From IMG/VR virus record IMGVR_UViG_3300033076_000614, positions 1-32,050 of that record: a stretch of 32,050 bases of DNA. The stretch is one strand, 5' to 3'. Numbering within the stretch: position 1 is the stretch's first letter; every line of letters begins with the position of its first letter. The translations under genes were made by a program, and so were the position numbers. This document shows, piece by piece, positions 2,531-24,185 of the stretch. Source of the DNA: a virus (Duplodnaviria > Caudoviricetes). The notes under the pieces are model-generated. The model made no database searches. It had not been told where the DNA came from and worked only from the letters and a program-made list of their open reading frames with translations.

Positions 2531-3049
2531 ATGCACATCATCGAACCACTCTTCTCAGCAGAAGCCATCGCCGAGCGTGTGAAGAAGCTCGGCGCAGACA
2601 TCACCGATGTCTACCGTGGGACAGAGCTCCATGTTGTGATCGTTCTGACAGGTGCTCTGCCTTTCGCTGCCGACCTCATACGCGCGATCGACTTGCCGCT
2701 GCGCGTCCACACCGTGCACGCCTCGAGCTACGGTGCGAACCGCACGCCGAGCAGTTTCGTCTACCTCAGTGCGATCACCCCCGAGCTCCCGACCGGCGCG
2801 CGCGTCCTCGTCATCGACGACATCCTCGACACCGGGAACACCCTCGCGCGCGTGCGCTTCGACCTGACGCACAACGCCAACGCCCGCAGCGTGAAGACGG
2901 CCGTGCTGCTCGACAAGCAAGTGCGCCGCACTGCGGACGTCACTGCCGACTTCGTCGGCTTCCTGGTGCCCGATCTGTTCGTCGTCGGCTACGGGCTCGA
3001 CCTCGCAGGGGCGTACCGGAACCTGCCCTACGTCGGCGTGATGCGGTGA
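2531..3049 (+). CDS. hpt: Hypoxanthine(-guanine) phosphoribosyltransferase
   Basis: Type I PRT PRPP loop VLVIDDILDTGNTL, flexible-loop SSYG, LLDK, FVVGYGLD and YRNLPY, all HPRT signatures. Confidence 0.93.
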   Translation: MHIIEPLFSAEAIAERVKKLGADITDVYRGTELHVVIVLTGALPFAADLIRAIDLPLRVHTVHASSYGANRTPSSFVYLSAITPELPTGARVLVIDDILDTGNTLARVRFDLTHNANARSVKTAVLLDKQVRRTADVTADFVGFLVPDLFVVGYGLDLAGAYRNLPYVGVMR

Positions 3050-3100: not shown

Positions 3101-4597
3101 ATGAGCACCGCAAGCAAGTACGACCCGTGGGCGAGGCAAGCGCCGCAGCGAACCATGGTCGCCACCATGGACCAGGCCCGACGCATGCGCGCCAAGGTCG
3201 CGCGGCAGGATGTCAACGAGTTCATCGAGTTCGTCATGCGCGACGAACAGACGGGTGCTGCGCTGCGACAGGCCCCGGTGCACGAGGCGTTCCAAGAGCT
3301 CGCAGGCGTCTACCCTCGCCTACTGATCTGGAGTCATCTCGAGGCCGGCAAGACCTCTCAGTTGAGCATCGGGCGCACTCTGTGGGCGATCGGTCGTAAC
3401 CCCAACGTCCGCGTCGTCATCGTCTCTCGCACGATCAATCAGGGGCGGAAGATCCTGCGCGCCATCAAGGGCTACATCGAGCGCAGTGAGGAGCTCCGAC
3501 TCGTCTTCCCAGACCTGCGCCCAGGGCCGCGTTGGAACGACAGCGAGATCATCGTGCAGCGCACCACGACATCGAAAGACCCGACAGTGCAGGTCGCCTC
3601 CGCAGGCGTCGGCTCTCTCCAGGGCGCACGCATCGACATCGCGATCCTCGACGACGTGCTCACCCACGAGAACACGCGCACACCGGAACTCAGGCAAGCG
3701 ATGTTCGACTGGTATCTCGCCTCGATCGCAGGCCGCGTGAACCCAGATGGCGGGCAAGTGATCTTCGTCGGCAACGCCTTCCACCCACAGGACATGATGC
3801 ACCTGCTCGCCGAGAACCCGATGTGGCACAGCGCGCGCTTCCCCGTGCTGACCGACGACGGCTACTCGACGTGGCCGGCGCGGTGGAGCAACGATCGTGT
3901 CAGTGCCAAGCGCATCGAGCTCGGGCCGCACGAGTTCGCGCGGCAGATGCTCTGCAAGCCTCTGGACGAAGGAGCGACGCGCTTCCGCCGCGAGTGGATC
4001 AAAGGCGCGCTCGACAAGGGCCGAGGCACTCAACTCGCCTATGCTCTGACGACCGTGCCGCCCGGTTATCAGACGTACACCGGAGTCGACCTCGGCACGC
4101 GCAAGAGCAAGAAGTCCGACCTGACAGTGCTGTTCACGATCATCGTTCACCCGAACGGAACGCGCGAGGTGCTCGAGATCTCAAGCGGCAGATGGAACGG
4201 GCCGGAGATCGTGGATCGCCTCGTCGACGTGCACCACCGTTACGCGAGTGTGCTGATCGTCGAGAACGTCAGCGCACAGCAGTTCATCGTCGACTTCACG
4301 AAGCAGCACAGCGCGATCCCTGTCGTCGGCTTCACCACTGGCAAGAACAAGTGGAGCGCGGAGTTCGGCTTGGAGTCGCTCGCGATCGAGCTCGCGAACG
4401 GCAAGTGGCTGATCCCCTCGACTGACCAGGGCGTGCCTGCGACCAAGGACATCAGCGCGTGGATCGAAGAGATGATCCACTACGACCCGAACGCGCACAC
4501 CGGAGACCGTCTGATGGCGATGTGGTTCGCGAGAGAGGGATCGCGTCAGAGCAAGCCGCAGGCGCGGCGCTTCAACACGACGTTGGCGGTGCGGTGA
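3101..4597 (+). CDS. terL: Terminase large subunit
   Basis: Walker A-like EAGKT, Walker B IAILDD, VIFVGN coupling motif, RNase H-like nuclease GVDLG and C-terminal HTGDRLMA. About 500 aa, upstream of portal. Confidence 0.93.
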   Translation: MSTASKYDPWARQAPQRTMVATMDQARRMRAKVARQDVNEFIEFVMRDEQTGAALRQAPVHEAFQELAGVYPRLLIWSHLEAGKTSQLSIGRTLWAIGRNPNVRVVIVSRTINQGRKILRAIKGYIERSEELRLVFPDLRPGPRWNDSEIIVQRTTTSKDPTVQVASAGVGSLQGARIDIAILDDVLTHENTRTPELRQAMFDWYLASIAGRVNPDGGQVIFVGNAFHPQDMMHLLAENPMWHSARFPVLTDDGYSTWPARWSNDRVSAKRIELGPHEFARQMLCKPLDEGATRFRREWIKGALDKGRGTQLAYALTTVPPGYQTYTGVDLGTRKSKKSDLTVLFTIIVHPNGTREVLEISSGRWNGPEIVDRLVDVHHRYASVLIVENVSAQQFIVDFTKQHSAIPVVGFTTGKNKWSAEFGLESLAIELANGKWLIPSTDQGVPATKDISAWIEEMIHYDPNAHTGDRLMAMWFAREGSRQSKPQARRFNTTLAVR

Positions 4598-4646
4598 ACG
4601 ATCGGCGTTCTGAAACGCGGTTCGAGCGCACAACGTACTGAGCACC

Positions 4647-6897: not shown

Positions 6898-8556
6898 ATG
6901 AGCAGCGGCACCGGCTTCGACCCAGGCGGGGTCAACGACTTCCTCTACTCCGACGCCTCGACGCCGGATGGTGCCGGCGCGGGCACAGACATGAACCCGC
7001 GCCAGCTGGAGCTCACTCGTCTGTGGTCCTTCTACCGCTGCACCAACTACGCGAACCGCACGACAGACTGGAACGGCGGCATCCACACAGAGCACGTCGA
7101 GCACAGTTCGATCGCGACTCAGGGCTACGTCCCACCCGGCTTCATCGACAAGGGGCGGCAGATGTTGCCGCTCAAGTTCCGCCGACCGACTGCGCCGTAC
7201 TACCTGATCCGCGTCGTCGTCGAACGCTTCACCGGCCTTCTCTTCGGTGAGAAGCGCAGGCCGAAGATCGTCGTCGAGGGCGACCCCGCGACGACCGACT
7301 TCATCGAGGGGCTGATCGAAGCTGGGCGGCTCTGGCCTGCGATGCTCAAGGCGCGCGCCTACGGCGGCGCGATGGGCAGCGTTGCGATGGGCTTCTCGCT
7401 GATCAACGGTACGCCGACCTTCGAGGTCTTCGACCCGCGTTGGTGTACGCCTGTCTTCGCTGATCGGCATCGACTGACGTTGAAGGCGCTCGAGGTCCGC
7501 TACGTCTTCACGGAGATGGCGCGCGACGATGACGGCGAGTGGGTGCAGAAGCCGTACTGGTATCGGCGTCTGATCACGCCGGAAGCGGACGCGATCTGGG
7601 ACAAGGTGCCCGCCGACCAAGGCGAGCCGCGCTGGTATGACGATCAGACTCCGCGCCGCATCGTCGAACACAAGCTCGGGATCTGCCCCGCGATCTGGAT
7701 TCAGAACACGAGCAACGACGACGACATCGACGGCGATCCCGACGGCCTCGGTGCCTACGATCTGTCTGAGGCGTACGACGCGCTGATGGCACAAGCGAAC
7801 AAGGGGACGCTCGCCAACGCCGACCCGACGTTGCTGATCACGTCTGACTCCGACCTACCGCCCGACTTGCAGAAGGGCAGTGACAACGCGATCCAGTTGG
7901 AGAAGGGCGGCAGCGCGCAGTACCTCGAGCTCCAAGGCATGGGGCCGAAGGCGGCGCGCGAGCTCGCGACCGAGATGCGGGAGCGTGCGTTCGAGGTCGT
8001 CGCGTGCGTCCCCGACAACGCGATCGAAGGACCGCAGCAGACGGCCACAGAGGTCGTCACTCGCCTGAGCCGGATGCTCGAGCGCGCCGACGTGTTCCGC
8101 GAGCAGTACGGCGAGCAGGGCGTCAAGCGCATCATCGAAGTCGCGCTCGTTGTGTGCCGTGCTGCGATTGCGCCTCGGCAGGAGCAGATGACGGTCGACG
8201 GCGAGACGATCACCCGCGCTGTGCGCGGCGCAGTGAACCTACCGCCGAAGGCGGTCGAGCAGGAGGACGGCTCAATCGAGTATGCTGAGCGCCGCCTCGG
8301 CCCGCTCTCGTTGGTGAAGCTCTCGTGGCCGCGCTACCTAGAGCCGACGCTCGACGACGCGACCAAGGCGGTCGACAGTGCGCAGAAGGCGGTCGACCTC
8401 GGCGTGATGGACAAGCAGGCAGCGGCCGAGTGGCTCGCTCAGTTCCTCCCGCTCGGCAATACGCGGGCGCTCCTCTCGCGGATCGAGGCTGCGCAGGCCG
8501 CTGCGAAGAAGGAAGAGGAAGAGGCGATGGCGCGCTACAACGCGGGCGGGTACTGA
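6898..8556 (+). CDS. Portal protein
   Basis: 552 aa downstream of terL. Portal-like elements YLIRVVVERFTGLLFG, EHKLGICPAIWIQN and C-terminal KLSWP...helices. Confidence 0.85.
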   Translation: MSSGTGFDPGGVNDFLYSDASTPDGAGAGTDMNPRQLELTRLWSFYRCTNYANRTTDWNGGIHTEHVEHSSIATQGYVPPGFIDKGRQMLPLKFRRPTAPYYLIRVVVERFTGLLFGEKRRPKIVVEGDPATTDFIEGLIEAGRLWPAMLKARAYGGAMGSVAMGFSLINGTPTFEVFDPRWCTPVFADRHRLTLKALEVRYVFTEMARDDDGEWVQKPYWYRRLITPEADAIWDKVPADQGEPRWYDDQTPRRIVEHKLGICPAIWIQNTSNDDDIDGDPDGLGAYDLSEAYDALMAQANKGTLANADPTLLITSDSDLPPDLQKGSDNAIQLEKGGSAQYLELQGMGPKAARELATEMRERAFEVVACVPDNAIEGPQQTATEVVTRLSRMLERADVFREQYGEQGVKRIIEVALVVCRAAIAPRQEQMTVDGETITRAVRGAVNLPPKAVEQEDGSIEYAERRLGPLSLVKLSWPRYLEPTLDDATKAVDSAQKAVDLGVMDKQAAAEWLAQFLPLGNTRALLSRIEAAQAAAKKEEEEAMARYNAGGY

Positions 8557-8885
8557 TGCACTGCCCGTTCTGCGCGCTGGCTAGTCGCGACGACGGCACG
8601 CACCGCGTGCGCCTGCGTAGTCAGTCCTTCGTTGTGTTCGACGACCGCCGCCCGCGACACGCGACGCATCTGATCGTCGCGCCTCGGGTGCACGCGGAAA
8701 CGTATGAGGAGCTCCGCGTCGCGTACCCAGATGTCGCGGCGCGGCTGCTGCCCTACGCGGCCGAGGTCGCTGCGCGGCTCGGGCTGCGCGGGTATAAGGT
8801 CGTACTCAGTGTCGGGCGCGGAGGCGGCCAGCGTGTGATGCACTCACACGCGCATCTGTTCAGTGATCAGACAGGAGGCGTGTGA
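8556..8885 (+). CDS. HIT (HINT-like) nucleotide hydrolase
   Basis: N-terminal CPFC, FDDRRP..THLIVAPRVH and GGGQRVMHSHAHLF (HxHxH triad). TGATG-coupled to portal. Confidence 0.9.
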   Translation: MHCPFCALASRDDGTHRVRLRSQSFVVFDDRRPRHATHLIVAPRVHAETYEELRVAYPDVAARLLPYAAEVAARLGLRGYKVVLSVGRGGGQRVMHSHAHLFSDQTGGV

Positions 8886-9535
8886 TGGCGAGAGCGAGAA
8901 CGGGAGAGCGGCGCGGCGTTGCACTGGAGCGCAGGCGAGACGCTGCCGCAGCGCGCGGACACAGCCCCGGCATGGCGCAAGGGGCAGAGCATGCGCGTGC
9001 ACTCCATATAGAGGATCTCACTGTGCACGCGAATCGGGCAACGGCTCGCGCGCATATCGGGGGCACAGCTGAACACTACCACGATGCCGAGCGCGCCCAT
9101 CGTGCAGTTGCTTCAGCGTATCGGCTCGAAGGTCGTCACGACGTTGCAGCCATGGCCGACGAGGACGCCGACGAGATGCGCGAGCGAGCACACCGCCTCA
9201 GCGGTAGTCGCGCGCCCGCGTTGCGCGCTGCCCGCGAAGCGGCAGCACTGGCAGATGATTTGCGCCGTGGGAATAGGAGTGCGGCGGATCATCGGTCAGC
9301 CGCGATTCAGCACAGGGTGGCAGCAGACCTGTTCAAGCGGGGTGGGGATGCTGCTCAAGCCTCGGTGTATAGTGCGAGGGCTGCCGAGCATGAAATGCAC
9401 GCGCAGACCCACGCCGCTGCCGGGCACCCACCGAGTGCTGCTCAGCAGCGTCAGCCGCACGCTCTCAAGCAGGGAAAGAAGGGCGGCATGTATTACATCG
9501 GACCTTCGGGTCGAAAGGTCTATGTGAAGGGCTGA
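8885..9535 (+). CDS. Ala/His/Arg-rich helical protein with C-terminal basic GKKGG..YY..GxKVYVK module
   Basis: AGGAGG SD. C-terminus LKQGKKGGMYYIGPSGRKVYVKG. Confidence 0.75.
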   Translation: MARARTGERRGVALERRRDAAAARGHSPGMAQGAEHARALHIEDLTVHANRATARAHIGGTAEHYHDAERAHRAVASAYRLEGRHDVAAMADEDADEMRERAHRLSGSRAPALRAAREAAALADDLRRGNRSAADHRSAAIQHRVAADLFKRGGDAAQASVYSARAAEHEMHAQTHAAAGHPPSAAQQRQPHALKQGKKGGMYYIGPSGRKVYVKG

Positions 9536-10021: not shown

Positions 10022-10206
10022 CCGACAAGCCGAAGCCCCGGCGACGTACGCCACTGCTCGCTTACGCTCTCGCGCATGGGCTGGTGAAGAAGCCTGCTCC
10101 AAAGCCCGCCCCGAAATACCTCGGCGTTCGCTTGCCCCGTGGCGCGCGCGTCCTGCAGTTGGACTTCGGGGACAGTTGGCTCGCTGGTGCTCGAGATGAC
10201 GAGTGA
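10018..10206 (+). CDS. Small basic hypothetical protein
   Basis: GTGA overlap; fills the gap between neighbours. Confidence 0.5.
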   Translation: MTDKPKPRRRTPLLAYALAHGLVKKPAPKPAPKYLGVRLPRGARVLQLDFGDSWLAGARDDE

Positions 10207-11005
10207 CCGCACCATCCCGGTCAAGAAGACTGTGTCGCGTGGCGGAAAGTCATTCGATCAGACGTACCACGTTCTGCGCGACGATCTGAAGCGCGCGCTC
10301 AAACAGAAGGACAAGTCTGCTGCACTCGCGATGGTCGGGACGACGCGCGCGCACGTCCTCAAGTACATCGACGACGACGGGGACACCGGCTACTTCCATT
10401 CATCAATCGGCGGCGCAGCGCGTGAGATGTATTCGGCAGCGAGCATGATCGTCAGCGGGCAGCCGTACAGTGCAGACGCTTTCGCACGCACTGTCGGCCA
10501 CAACGATGCCACCTCCGCGTTCGGCGACAGCACTGCGCAGCACATCGCGCGCCGCATGCATGAGGCTGCGCACAACGACGAGCTCACCGGATGTCTGAAC
10601 GGGCTCAGTTCTTTGTCTCAGGCCGCGTATGACAGCGATCACGTTGAGGTCTATCGCGGGATAGGTTCGGCGCAGGCAAGGCAGATCAGAGACGCGTTCG
10701 CTGATCCGAACGTCCGCGAGATCGTCGTCGGCTTGCGCCCACTGACCTCGTTCAGTGAGGACCACACAGCGGCGCAGAACTTCGCCGATGATCCGATTGG
10801 CGGGCGCCCGAGTGCGCGACAAGCCGGGTCCGGCGTTGTGATCAGAACGCGTCTCCCAACGACTTCGATCATGCTGTCTCACCGAGTCGCCAACGGGATC
10901 GTCGAGCCGGGTAGTTCGCGCATCATGCGGAGCACGTCGGAGGTGGTAGCCTTCACGACCGGCGCGATGGTGATTCGCAGAGAGGATGTGGTGAGCGGGC
11001 TGTGA
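10196..11005 (+). CDS. ADP-ribosyltransferase-like protein (R-S-E clade)
   Basis: Ordered motifs EVYRG, LTSFS-EDHTAAQNFA, GVVIRTRL and SEVV match the ART core. N-terminal basic IPVKKTVSRGGKSFDQTYHV segment. Confidence 0.7.
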   Translation: MTSDRTIPVKKTVSRGGKSFDQTYHVLRDDLKRALKQKDKSAALAMVGTTRAHVLKYIDDDGDTGYFHSSIGGAAREMYSAASMIVSGQPYSADAFARTVGHNDATSAFGDSTAQHIARRMHEAAHNDELTGCLNGLSSLSQAAYDSDHVEVYRGIGSAQARQIRDAFADPNVREIVVGLRPLTSFSEDHTAAQNFADDPIGGRPSARQAGSGVVIRTRLPTTSIMLSHRVANGIVEPGSSRIMRSTSEVVAFTTGAMVIRREDVVSGL

Positions 11006-11448
11006 TCATCGTAGTCGACTTCGACGGCACGGTCGTCCACGACCGCGACCCGCTCGCGCTCCAGCCCGGCGCGCTCGAGGCGCTGCGCGCGATGAAGCGG
11101 GCCGGCCATACGCTGCTCCTCCAGTCCGCACGCGCAGACTGGAGCGAGCGCGTGAACCCCTACGTCTCGCCGCTCGTGCGTCGCCACGTCGAGATCGGAC
11201 TCGGCTTCGACGAGGCGTACTGGCGCGAGCACGTCCAGCCCGAGGCTGAGCGGAGGTATCAGGAGATGCTCGAGTTCGTGGAGCAGGAGCTCCCTGACGT
11301 GTTCGACGCGATCGACGACGGTCGCTCGGGCAAGCTCTACGGCGACGTCTACCTCGACAACCGATCGCGGCGGGTCACTTGCTTGCCGCTGCCCGGTGTG
11401 ATGAACTGGACGCAGGTGGCGAGGCGCTACGGCGACCCGGAGGAGTGA
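11002..11448 (+). CDS. Cap-less HAD-superfamily phosphatase
   Basis: Motif I VDFDGT, motif II SAR, motifs III/IV KLYGDVYLDNR. Confidence 0.85.
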   Translation: MIIVVDFDGTVVHDRDPLALQPGALEALRAMKRAGHTLLLQSARADWSERVNPYVSPLVRRHVEIGLGFDEAYWREHVQPEAERRYQEMLEFVEQELPDVFDAIDDGRSGKLYGDVYLDNRSRRVTCLPLPGVMNWTQVARRYGDPEE

Positions 11449-21566: not shown

Positions 21567-22979
21567 GTGCCCGACTTCTCCACAATCCTCCAGACGCCCG
21601 AGGTCCGCCAGGTCGTGCAGGACAACCTGCTCGAGAGGGCATTCCACGACGCCCTGTTCCCCGGTCTTCTGTACCGTGGAGAGGCCGTGCCGCAGCCGTG
21701 GCCGCTCAACAGCGGCGACACGCAGATCTTCTCTGCGCCCGGCCTGATGACGCCGAAGCAGCGTCCGCTCCAGCCGGGCGTCGACCCGAGCGTCAGCTCG
21801 TACACGGTCGAGCAGTGGACCGCGACGCTCCAGCAGTACGCCGACTCGATCGACACGCACATGCCGACCAGCATCGCGGCGATCATCGACCTCTTCATGC
21901 GCAACGCGCACCAGCTGGGCATGAGCGCGTCGCAGGCGCTCAACCGCATCGTCCGCGACCGCATGTTCAACGCGGCGCTCTCCGGTTGGACGGTCACGCA
22001 GACCGGGTACACCGGAGGCGCGAGCACGTCGCTCCCCGTGATGTCGATCAACGGCTTCACCACGGCGCGCAACCCGTCGCTCGCGGGCGGGAGCAAGGTC
22101 CGCTTCGACACCGTCTCGGCAAGCAATCCGCTGACGATCGAGATCGAGGGCCTCGGTTCGAACACCGTCGTCGGCTTCACTGCCGACAACCCCGGCGACA
22201 CGGTCGGCCCCGGCACGCTGATCCTCGGCTCGGCCGTCGCCATCGGAACCGCGCGTCGGTACGTCCGCTCGATCGACCGCTCGAACATCGTGCGCGTCGG
22301 CGGCGGGAACAAGGTCGACGATCTCGCGACGACCGACATCCTCGCGCTCGCCCCGATCCGTCAGGCCGTCGCGTCGTTCTGGCAGAACAACGTGCCGACC
22401 CACATCGACGGGCGCTTCCACGGTCACGTCGACCCGACCAACATCTCGCAGGTGTACGAGGACGACGAGTTCCAGCGGCTCAACACCTCGCTCCCCGACT
22501 ACGTCATCTACCGCCAGTTCGCGCTCGGCGAGATCCTCAACGTGGTCTTCTTCCGCAACACGGAGTCGCCGATCGCTCAGACCGTCCAGACGGTGAACAG
22601 CGACGGCATCACCTACACGCCCGACGATCAGTTCGCGGGTGAGCTCTACTCGAACGGCAACGCCTCCACGGGCGTCCCCGTGCACCGCACGCTCCTCACG
22701 GCGCAGGGCGGCATCTACGAGTACTACCAGGACATGATGGCGCTGATCACCGACGCCGGCCTCAACGGCAAGGTCGCGGACCCGCGCATCGTCAACAACG
22801 GCATCGAGGTGATGAGCGACCGCATCCAGCTCGTCATCCGTGGTCCGCTGAACCGCCTCCAAGACCTCGTCTCCACGTCGTGGAAGTTCCTCGGCGACTG
22901 GCCGGCGCGCACCGACGCAGCGACCGGAGACGCGGCCCGCTACAAGCGGTTCATCGCGATCGAGACGGGCGCGGCCTGA
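21567..22979 (+). CDS. Major capsid protein
   Basis: 470 aa after scaffold, highest GC3 bias. NSGDTQIF...TATLQQYADSIDT resembles N4-gp56-type HK97-fold capsids. Confidence 0.85.
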   Translation: MPDFSTILQTPEVRQVVQDNLLERAFHDALFPGLLYRGEAVPQPWPLNSGDTQIFSAPGLMTPKQRPLQPGVDPSVSSYTVEQWTATLQQYADSIDTHMPTSIAAIIDLFMRNAHQLGMSASQALNRIVRDRMFNAALSGWTVTQTGYTGGASTSLPVMSINGFTTARNPSLAGGSKVRFDTVSASNPLTIEIEGLGSNTVVGFTADNPGDTVGPGTLILGSAVAIGTARRYVRSIDRSNIVRVGGGNKVDDLATTDILALAPIRQAVASFWQNNVPTHIDGRFHGHVDPTNISQVYEDDEFQRLNTSLPDYVIYRQFALGEILNVVFFRNTESPIAQTVQTVNSDGITYTPDDQFAGELYSNGNASTGVPVHRTLLTAQGGIYEYYQDMMALITDAGLNGKVADPRIVNNGIEVMSDRIQLVIRGPLNRLQDLVSTSWKFLGDWPARTDAATGDAARYKRFIAIETGAA

Positions 22980-22984
22980 GCCGT

Positions 22985-23356
22985 GATGCGCACGCTGGCG
23001 ACAGCCTTGCAAGAGGTGCGGGCTCGCAACCCGCGCGTGCGTCCGATTGCCCCTCGTGGGCGTCGTGCCGAGGTCTTCCCTGGTGGAAGCAGATACGGGT
23101 CCGGCAAGACCTGTTCTCGGCAACCTGCCGCGTGTCTCGGAGCTTCGTCTCCGGGGGTGCCATCGCAGCAGGCGTACCTCGTCGGTGTGTCCACTCTGGT
23201 CGAGTGGTTCCCCTTCGAGGGTTCAGACGGATTGGACCTGATCGCTTCGGCGTGACTGTCCCCGGGCAGGGAGCCTCAAGCTGACACGAGCCTCGACCTC
23301 TCGATAATCGGGTCGCTAAACCCAAAGCGCGAGATCACTCCCTGCCCGGCCGTCAC
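22985..23356 (+). ncRNA. Candidate large structured non-coding RNA
   Basis: About 400-nt gap filled with nested stems, GNRA and cUUCGg tetraloops and a perfect 12-bp stem (see findings). Confidence 0.6.
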
Positions 23357-23383
23357 CTCTCCCCATCCACTGAGGATGCACCC

Positions 23384-23737
23384 ATGAGCAGCACGACGAA
23401 GACCGAGCAGACGAAGATCAGCCCCGCACCCAAGCCGGTCGCTCCGATGCGCCAACCGGGCGACGCCCCGGCCCCTGCACCAGAGCGCGCCGAGGCCGCA
23501 CCGGCACCGGCACCGGCACCGCCTGCGCCTCCCTCGGAGACTCTGGGTGCGCTGCCCGACACGCGCCCAGCGCCCGTGTCGGTGGTGCGTTGGCGCGTGG
23601 TCGAGAAGGCCAAGGCCGTGTTCAACGGCGGGCGGCACGCGCTCGCGGCGGGAAAGATCCTCGACGAAAGCTCACTCGGCGCGAAGGCGATCGAGTCGAT
23701 CCGCGCTCAAGGCGTGAAGCTCGAGCGCGTGGAGTGA
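23384..23737 (+). CDS. Pro/Ala-rich protein with small C-terminal domain (post-capsid accessory)
   Basis: GAGGA SD; position after capsid gene. Confidence 0.7.
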   Translation: MSSTTKTEQTKISPAPKPVAPMRQPGDAPAPAPERAEAAPAPAPAPPAPPSETLGALPDTRPAPVSVVRWRVVEKAKAVFNGGRHALAAGKILDESSLGAKAIESIRAQGVKLERVE

Positions 23738-23741
23738 TCGA

Positions 23742-24185
23742 ATGACCGGCACACTCACCGAGGAAGAGAAGGCGCGCGTCAGGCACCACATGGGATATCC
23801 CGAGGTGCAGCCCGCCGCGTCGCTCGTCTACGGCGTGCCGAAGCCTGCTCAGACTGCGTTCTTGCTCGAGTCGGCGATGGGTCTTCTGATCGACACCGCC
23901 GTCCCGCGCGTGCGATCAATCCTGCAAATCTGCGACGATCTCGAGCAGCAGATGGTCGACGCACAGTGCTACCTCGTCGCCGACAGCCTGGGCGAGATCC
24001 ACTTGGCGGGCGCAGGCGGCGACTCGAAGAACCGTCTCGTCACAGAGCGGCTCGAGGGCGAGTACGTCCGCTGGGCGATGCGCCTCGCAGACGTGTTCGG
24101 CTGCCCGCTCTACCCGTTCTCCGAACGCTTCCGCCGAGGCACCGGGACTCCGCGCTACGGCAACCTCGGCGTGAGGAACGGGTGA
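23742..24185 (+). CDS. Putative head-tail adaptor
   Basis: LTEEEKARVRHHMGYP start, helical, neck position. Confidence 0.6.
   Translation: MTGTLTEEEKARVRHHMGYPEVQPAASLVYGVPKPAQTAFLLESAMGLLIDTAVPRVRSILQICDDLEQQMVDAQCYLVADSLGEIHLAGAGGDSKNRLVTERLEGEYVRWAMRLADVFGCPLYPFSERFRRGTGTPRYGNLGVRNG

Follow-up and report, generated by a model that had tools for sequence, protein, structure and literature searches.

What fills the long gap behind the major capsid gene of this phage, and what could it do there? The stretch of DNA analysed (the window, 32,050 nt) is a 32-kb virus record with a completeness estimate of 36%, which carries terminase, portal, capsid, tail sheath, tail tube and tape measure genes; to judge from this gene set, the phage is contractile-tailed, and it belongs to an uncultured myovirus clade. 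A DNA comparison with 50,697 annotated phages gave no match. For the capsid protein, 888 of 8,000 scored candidates are relatives, and the 120 matches listed bear no informative name; its closest relatives are 71-75% identical. Annotated major capsid proteins match it in seven phage records at about 25-30% identity, and the matches in cultured phages are all distant. Between the capsid gene and the next gene, g2, lies a gap of 404 nt (22980-23383). The earlier note had described this as the only gap of about 400 nt, which is right in that it is the largest of the head-tail block, but the window has other large gaps, one of about 450 nt (2083-2530) and one of about 500 nt with little coding signal (8886-9394). 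Its position right behind the major capsid gene is as described there, the upstream gene matching a PHROG family. The neighbourhood is as follows.

21567..22979, plus strand: major capsid protein gene, 470 aa, upstream neighbour of the RNA (phrog_1357, E 2.1e-10)
22983..23357, plus strand: structured RNA, the element as a whole, with putative ends taken from the layout of the family; it occupies the gap between the capsid gene and g2, where at least 65 of the 104 distinct gaps in the clade have such an RNA
23372..23376, plus strand: ribosome binding site of g2, outside the 3' domain (from the sequence)
23384..23737, plus strand: g2, the next gene, 117 aa, with an N-terminus of low complexity followed by a C-terminal domain of some 50 aa that is conserved (alignment of 75 relatives)

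Two identical 151-nt pieces among the X2 DNA contigs lie over 23050-23346, and the DNA contigs of X1 and X2 show no sequence variants inside the RNA. Several other places in the window are of interest in their own right: a phosphoribosyltransferase-domain gene (2531-3049; PF00156, E 2e-23) just before the terminase gene; a HIT-family hydrolase gene (8556-8885; PF01230, E 3e-11) behind the portal gene and directly followed by the weakly coding stretch at 8886-9394; sub-cut-off Pfam leads at 10187-11005 and 11002-11448, to a DRAT-like ADP-ribosyltransferase and to the HAD domain of RNA-repair proteins; and a short ORF of repeated GYGY/GDG units at 497-715.

The gap could be coding, that is, it could encode a peptide (ORF 22983-23255) or, by frameshifting, an extension of the capsid protein (22880-23284), with the structure serving for recoding. 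Open frames of 90 and 134 aa do exist, and across 44 lineages the longest stop-free stretch averages 0.79 of the gap versus 0.70 in block shuffles. However, the codon scores of the two frames are -9.5 and -50.7, as against +18.4 for g2; neither frame has a Pfam family, and the 90-aa frame has no PHROG family either. Of 43 gaps, 14-17 have a frame that is open throughout, when 10.8-13.9 are expected (P 0.10, 0.04 and 0.12 with three different trims), such frames stand in no fixed frame relative to the capsid gene or to g2, the window has none, and the pseudoknot described below lies 300 nt beyond the capsid stop. A coding function is therefore hardly credible, and the ORF at 22983-23255, for which the earlier note had named coding support as a refutation of the RNA, looks non-coding.

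The next question is whether the gap folds. The earlier note had called it almost entirely pairable, and the stems that were checked do pair as written: (i) 22988-94/23036-42, (ii) 23041-48/23230-37, (iii) 23243-52, and the 12-bp stem 23262-73/23338-49. Nevertheless, this is no better than composition gives: in the comparison of folding energy with shuffles, a check named beforehand, the whole gap on the plus strand has a z of -1.25, with 12 of 100 shuffles folding as well (the minus strand has a z of -2.8). By part, z is -0.76 for the proposed cloverleaf, -0.16 for the middle part and +1.19 for 23185-23255; the sole part to beat shuffles is the 3' domain at 23250-23360 (z -3.9; 0 of 200 shuffles as good). 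In the whole-gap ensemble, the mean pair probability is 0.12 for stem (i), which closes the cloverleaf, and 0.00 for the long-range stem (ii); GGTCTT/AAGACC likewise has a probability of 0.00, TGCCGAG/CTCGGCA of 0.27 and GTGAC/GTCAC of 0.42. All that is well predicted in the 5' region is two local hairpins, at 23075-89 (probability 0.89) and 23098-111 (0.97).

22988..23190, plus strand: variable 5' region, with the cloverleaf and middle stems of the earlier note (z -0.76 and -0.16; no alignable relative by blastn)
23243..23252, plus strand: short UUCG hairpin (from the sequence; pair probability 0.26)
23262..23349, plus strand: 3' domain, a perfect 12-bp stem (23262-73/23338-49) carrying a pseudoknot (probability 0.99; z -3.9)
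23287..23315, plus strand: H-type pseudoknot of type II, with S1 at 23287-90/23300-03, S2 at 23294-99/23310-15 and an A-rich linker at 23304-09 (covariation; model R2)

On the window alone, the finding of a structured RNA would be doubtful. It is the covariation in relatives, and not the folding energy of the window itself, that supports a large RNA on the plus strand, of a class without an Rfam match; the particular 5' and long-range stems first proposed for it are not supported.

The relatives come from capsid-based scans (4 loci, the best 80 of 145, the best 80 of 204, and 2 loci) and from a motif scan that gave 25 more; a g3-based scan found none. A full capsid end and downstream DNA were present in 170 loci, giving 107 distinct gaps, or 104 after nine g2 starts had been corrected by hand and three redundant, mis-called rows removed. 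Gap lengths are bimodal, at about 75-170 nt or about 390-680 nt. When 36 of the 59 long gaps were folded (8 shuffles each), the median z was -5.3 and 31 of the 36 lay below -2; the window, at -1.4, is among the weakest folders of the clade. Since energy does not tell the strand, the strand was called from the cUUCGg motif, which occurs 101 times on the plus strand of the 59 gaps as against 4 times on the minus strand. Under strict scoring, the element is present in at least 65 of the 104 distinct gaps (six of the module-C labels come from pattern matches and not from the model search), and 60 of these 65 gaps are of at least 390 nt. At the other extreme are minimal versions of 153-254 nt, three of which (L151, L008 and L023) consist only of the stem and pseudoknot directly before g2, while L034 also has module C.

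The layout of the family was read by eye first and then tested. From 5' to 3', variable hairpins are followed by hairpin B, which has a YGGUC loop, by module C with its internal loop and by the closing helix P1; then come a long stem with an H-type pseudoknot at its tip, a pyrimidine tail and finally the g2 ribosome binding site. The family is modular, an RNA of 153 to about 680 nt on the plus strand. Two further parts of this layout can be placed in the window.

23191..23207, plus strand: hairpin with a YGGUC loop, module B (pair probability 0.91)
23226..23230, plus strand: likely 5' strand of the closing helix P1, with its partner at 23350-23354 (in the whole-gap MFE; probability 0.50)

Hairpins of the YGGUC type occur in 28 of 59 gaps, versus 10.75 expected from base shuffles, and no fixed kissing partner for the loop was found in 16 sequences. 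In the window, the loop and 3' arm of hairpin B (23199-23205) are the complement of 7 bases in the pseudoknot loop (23293-23299); this may be an alternative pairing of the window copy, as it is not a general feature of the relatives. Helix P1 competes in the window with the GTGAC/GTCAC stem (0.50 versus 0.42). Its support in the family is modest: the strands of 40 sequences match their own partners better than those of others (16.5 versus 14.4; 0 of 5000 permutations), with some of the best matches being other helices.

Module C is paired at 88.8% as against 65.8, 11 of its 13 pairs have changed on both sides, and the edge of its internal loop is invariant. A model of the module matches 45 of 100 loci, 33 of them training rows, and 7 of 24 held-out loci, which represent about four lineages. 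The window gap gives no match to it even with filters off, so that the window copy is a reduced family member without module C. The module comes and goes among close relatives, being present in L123 and absent from its close kin L071 and L074. The most divergent member, L169 (43% capsid identity), has a gap of 1,029 nt (1757-2785) with module C and a second C-like match, and may possibly contain two RNA units.

The 3' domain is the firm part of the RNA in the window. The earlier note had seen its 12-bp stem correctly, with an outer GTGAC/GTCAC helix that has a predicted probability of less than half, but the inner junction that it drew there is an H-type pseudoknot, which it missed. Long basal stems also appear in the predicted folds of relatives of type II. 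The pseudoknot pairs covary in 18 related sequences, as a check named beforehand had called for: with the window included, 82.5% of the type II pairs form, versus 68.8 +/- 1.8 in shuffles, a result that is unchanged when the window is left out; S2 is paired at 90%, with three of four pairs changed on both sides, whereas controls slid along the sequences pair at 24-43%. These counts lean towards structure, because the rows were picked by eye for their similarity and trimmed at S1; moreover, related sequences are not independent. A second approach compared each loop with its own downstream strand and with those of other members: the own pairing is the better one both in type I (12.5 versus 8.3; 19 loops) and in type II (12.1 versus 9.7; 16 loops), with 0 of 5000 permutations reaching it in either case. 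The loop thus pairs with a downstream strand and does so with compensatory changes, as an H-type pseudoknot should.

The checks with the model R2 are less circular. Built without the window, R2 ranks 23283-23322 first in the 32 kb (18.7 bits, E 0.0057), and this is the single pseudoknot match in the window. Among 24 loci fetched later (from 38 new ids) and held out, L219 matches R2 with a score of 34.9 bits, and in S1 of this locus both pairing sides have changed. Run over 100 loci, R2 recovers 16 of the 17 rows on which it was trained and also L081, with three further matches away from the family position. A sequence pattern of the type II knot has 17 matches in IMG/VR, of which 7 lie in post-capsid gaps of the clade; the 10 elsewhere were rejected as pseudoknots, being by eye without loop-to-tail pairing. 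A first, loose descriptor was also discarded as proof, since it fitted 62 of 79 gaps but also 42 of 158 shuffles, and some of its placements were wrong. In an unrelated AT-rich phage (L192, L195, L201, L207 and L208; match at about 2501), a scaffold-like gene is closely preceded by a hairpin and A-rich tail that look like the type II knot; pairing between loop and tail is not apparent. A sigma-70-like promoter match overlaps the pseudoknot in the window (23281..23308, plus strand; 1 found versus 0.1 expected). It is probably coincidental: its -10-like hexamer is the linker of the pseudoknot and varies in relatives.

How much of the window copy is under selection is a separate matter. No close relative of the window RNA was found (blastn of its gap gave no match in the 58 other gaps). 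Only the 3' domain and hairpin B may be selected, the rest having decayed or consisting of chance GC-rich stems. The low scores of the 5' parts, a z for the window far from the family median and the absence of module C all fit such a reading. However, the gap has kept the typical family length, GNRA and UUCG loops are present, and pseudoknots that the folding does not model would also lower z. Decay of the 5' part is possible but doubtful, and it can hold together with any of the readings of function that follow.

Clues to function come from how the element is inherited. In a FastTree tree of 102 capsids (2 short ones were omitted), all 20 type II members, the window included, fall in one clade of 36 with a support of 0.998, which indicates that the element is inherited with the capsid gene. 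It has also been lost repeatedly, at least 9 times if uncertain rows are left out of the count and 15 times under strict scoring. This bears on the proposal, already made in the earlier note, of a packaging RNA. The pRNA of phi29, of 174 nt, is described as essential for motor assembly (PMC13595911), and the present RNA is likewise a structured phage RNA with a possible tie to head assembly: it lies in the head module, would be made at the level of the capsid, and precedes a gene with a weak packaging lead (the Atlas feature Packaging_FI matches g2 at 0.75, on 26% of its members, so that g2 is possibly like the packaging chaperone gpFI of lambda). Unlike pRNA, however, it is absent from at least 9 separate lineages, close relatives lacking it altogether, and a conserved partner for a loop, looked for with hairpin B only, was not found in the 16 sequences. 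Repeated loss disfavours any core packaging role, and an essential one of the phi29 kind is very improbable.

Another explanation is that the pseudoknot is a translational operator, to which a phage protein binds to repress the translation of g2. T4 gp32 regulates itself in this way, through an upstream pseudoknot (PMC10690425), and in 18 type II members an H-type pseudoknot likewise lies upstream of a start codon, the 3' strand of S1 being 67-89 nt from that of g2. In contrast to the T4 leader, the knot here caps a long stem in a 400-nt RNA of several modules, is followed by a GC-rich stem strand with no open AU tract, and precedes a gene for a protein that is not an SSB. The ribosome binding site is outside the structure, being 3' of the stem in relatives too (by inspection). 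No residue tracks the presence of the RNA after correction (the best p is 0.007 among 458 capsid columns and 0.04 among 48 columns of the g2 domain). Although the structure model of g2 has a pLDDT of 90.5, its fold has no significant match, RNA-binding or other, in PDB sequences, Foldseek (best E 0.16) or VIA (best Z 3.8), such searches being weak for so short a domain; gpFI is not among the matches listed. Altogether, an operator is quite unlikely.

A broader possibility is a junction element acting in cis, in which the stem, pseudoknot and U-tail terminate, attenuate or stabilise the capsid-g2 transcript and the other modules tune this action. At the same place, most phages without the RNA have a plain terminator (19 of 29 short gaps). 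In one clade without the RNA (L014, L021, L030, L039 and L068), an extended -10-like motif stands directly before the terminator hairpin, within the first 35 nt past the capsid stop. Consistent with a role in cis, the minimal versions keep the 3' domain alone, and the exact pattern of module C has 25 matches in IMG/VR, all 25 in the post-capsid gap (24 with a capsid gene upstream and 1 truncated). Moreover, where an HNH gene has inserted between the capsid gene and the RNA (confirmed in L052 at 3906-4523 and in L070 at 3934-4644), the RNA remains beside g2. Insertions of HNH type are also seen by eye behind the capsid stop in L058, L079, L220, L221 and L228 (L058 without a Pfam match), and the capsid-to-g2 gap is, on these cases, a frequent site for such endonuclease genes.

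Against this, most lineages keep at least 390 nt and an internal loop conserved in sequence, and 9 of the 43 long gaps have a terminator-like hairpin upstream of the RNA, between it and the capsid gene. In the window, no GC hairpin runs directly into a U tract (the tail has 3 T in 8); nor is there a plus-strand terminator anywhere in 22500-23800. The upstream terminators and the HNH insertions together argue that the RNA is not a mere 3' end of the capsid message. On the other hand, a role in cis is suggested by the minimal versions and by the close, narrow range of distances to g2, and we regard a junction element as possible, though less likely than the reading that follows.

The reading that we favour, tentatively and at somewhat less than an even chance, is that this plus-strand RNA, confined to the clade, is a late product, co-transcribed with the capsid gene and then set free as a stable RNA that stands alone, is dispensable and would bind a protein. 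From the structure onwards, we infer each step. Because the window has no terminator before the RNA, transcription would read through into it from the strong capsid unit. Termination or cleavage at the pyrimidine- or U-rich tail that follows the closing helix might form its 3' end and would at the same time lower the expression of the next genes, as the plain terminator would in phages without the RNA. Protected by its closing helices and UUCG-type loops, the RNA could then accumulate and act in trans, as an accessory scaffold or decoy and not as a core part of assembly, the protein partner perhaps being bound through the pseudoknot. There is a precedent for abundant large phage RNAs that are not essential, namely ROOL, in one host (PMC12286853).

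The stand-alone reading rests on the gaps of at least 390 nt and on the invariant internal loop, which exceed the needs of a terminator or operator. The upstream terminators, the HNH genes of L052 and L070 and the ribosome binding site beyond the stem also speak for it, as does L234, in which a sigma-70 consensus promoter precedes a 200-nt version of the RNA. The minimal versions, the spacing of 67-89 nt and the U-rich tail, which no more than 21 of 43 members have and which is weak in the window copy, count against it, as do the absence of a clear promoter enrichment upstream of the RNA (8 versus 4.5 expected, and 9 versus 7.0 expected) and the 5' two-thirds of the window copy, which fold no better than shuffles.

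A bolder version is unlikely but would have wider consequences. The RNA would be a new, modular one made in capsid-level amounts, whose pseudoknot and invariant internal loop act on a host factor, such as an RNA-sensing defence protein or a nuclease, as decoy or scaffold, or which self-assembles or is packaged in virions. If this reading were true, the two types of pseudoknot and the gain and loss of modules would record adaptation to different hosts.

To our knowledge, few large structured phage RNAs have been described, and we know of no settled function for any ornate one. The present family provides natural experiments, with full and minimal versions, two pseudoknot types that track the capsid tree, modules gained or lost among close relatives, and phages in which a plain terminator takes the place of the RNA. 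These make the question of action in cis or in trans testable with synthetic RNA and no cultured host, and the family offers compact targets for structure work.

How does this RNA compare with known ones? An Rfam scan, a check named beforehand, gave no match in the window; nor was there one in 40 related loci, 11 of which were searched again at E up to 2, and this holds for group I and II introns, RNase P, small ribozymes and riboswitches. A tmRNA or tRNA-like RNA was rejected, ARAGORN finding 0 in the window and there being no fixed open frame. Type III antitoxin (ToxI-like) RNAs are tandem short pseudoknot repeats beside a toxin gene; such an RNA was also rejected, as the window has a single pseudoknot match and the neighbours are head genes. 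Mu-gpT-DE is an Rfam motif downstream of Mu-like major head genes, and would resemble the present RNA in its location behind the major capsid gene, but no Rfam family matched and the phage group is different.

No published description of the family was found. The candidate structured RNAs from IMG/VR, reported as 8,495 with lengths of 29-151 nt (PMC10690425), come from the same database and rest on the same kind of evidence, and a single module of the RNA could be among them; a single module could also lie in the supplementary data of that paper or of PMC5737381. The RNA is an uncatalogued, modular phage RNA family, of which the 3' pseudoknot domain is the firm part in the window.

The closest comparison is with ROOL and GOLLD, which are described as abundant, discrete RNAs that form homo-oligomeric cages, have a mean length of 581 nt or are longer than 800 nt, and are often found close to tRNA islands (PMC5737381, PMC12286853); related large RNAs are reported in Herelleviridae (PMC10383478). 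In contrast to these, the present family is of 150-680 nt, always lies behind the capsid gene, consists of mostly independent modules with one pseudoknot demonstrated, and is without a covariance model match in the window and 40 relatives; no tRNA was found in the window, and the one in the 40 loci is 2.4 kb upstream of the gap. The likeness lies in a large, pseudoknotted, phage-borne RNA whose 3' region is conserved while its 5' region varies, which is also described for GOLLD (PMC5737381, PMC12286853). By this analogy, the family would, if at all, work like ROOL and GOLLD without being a member of either.
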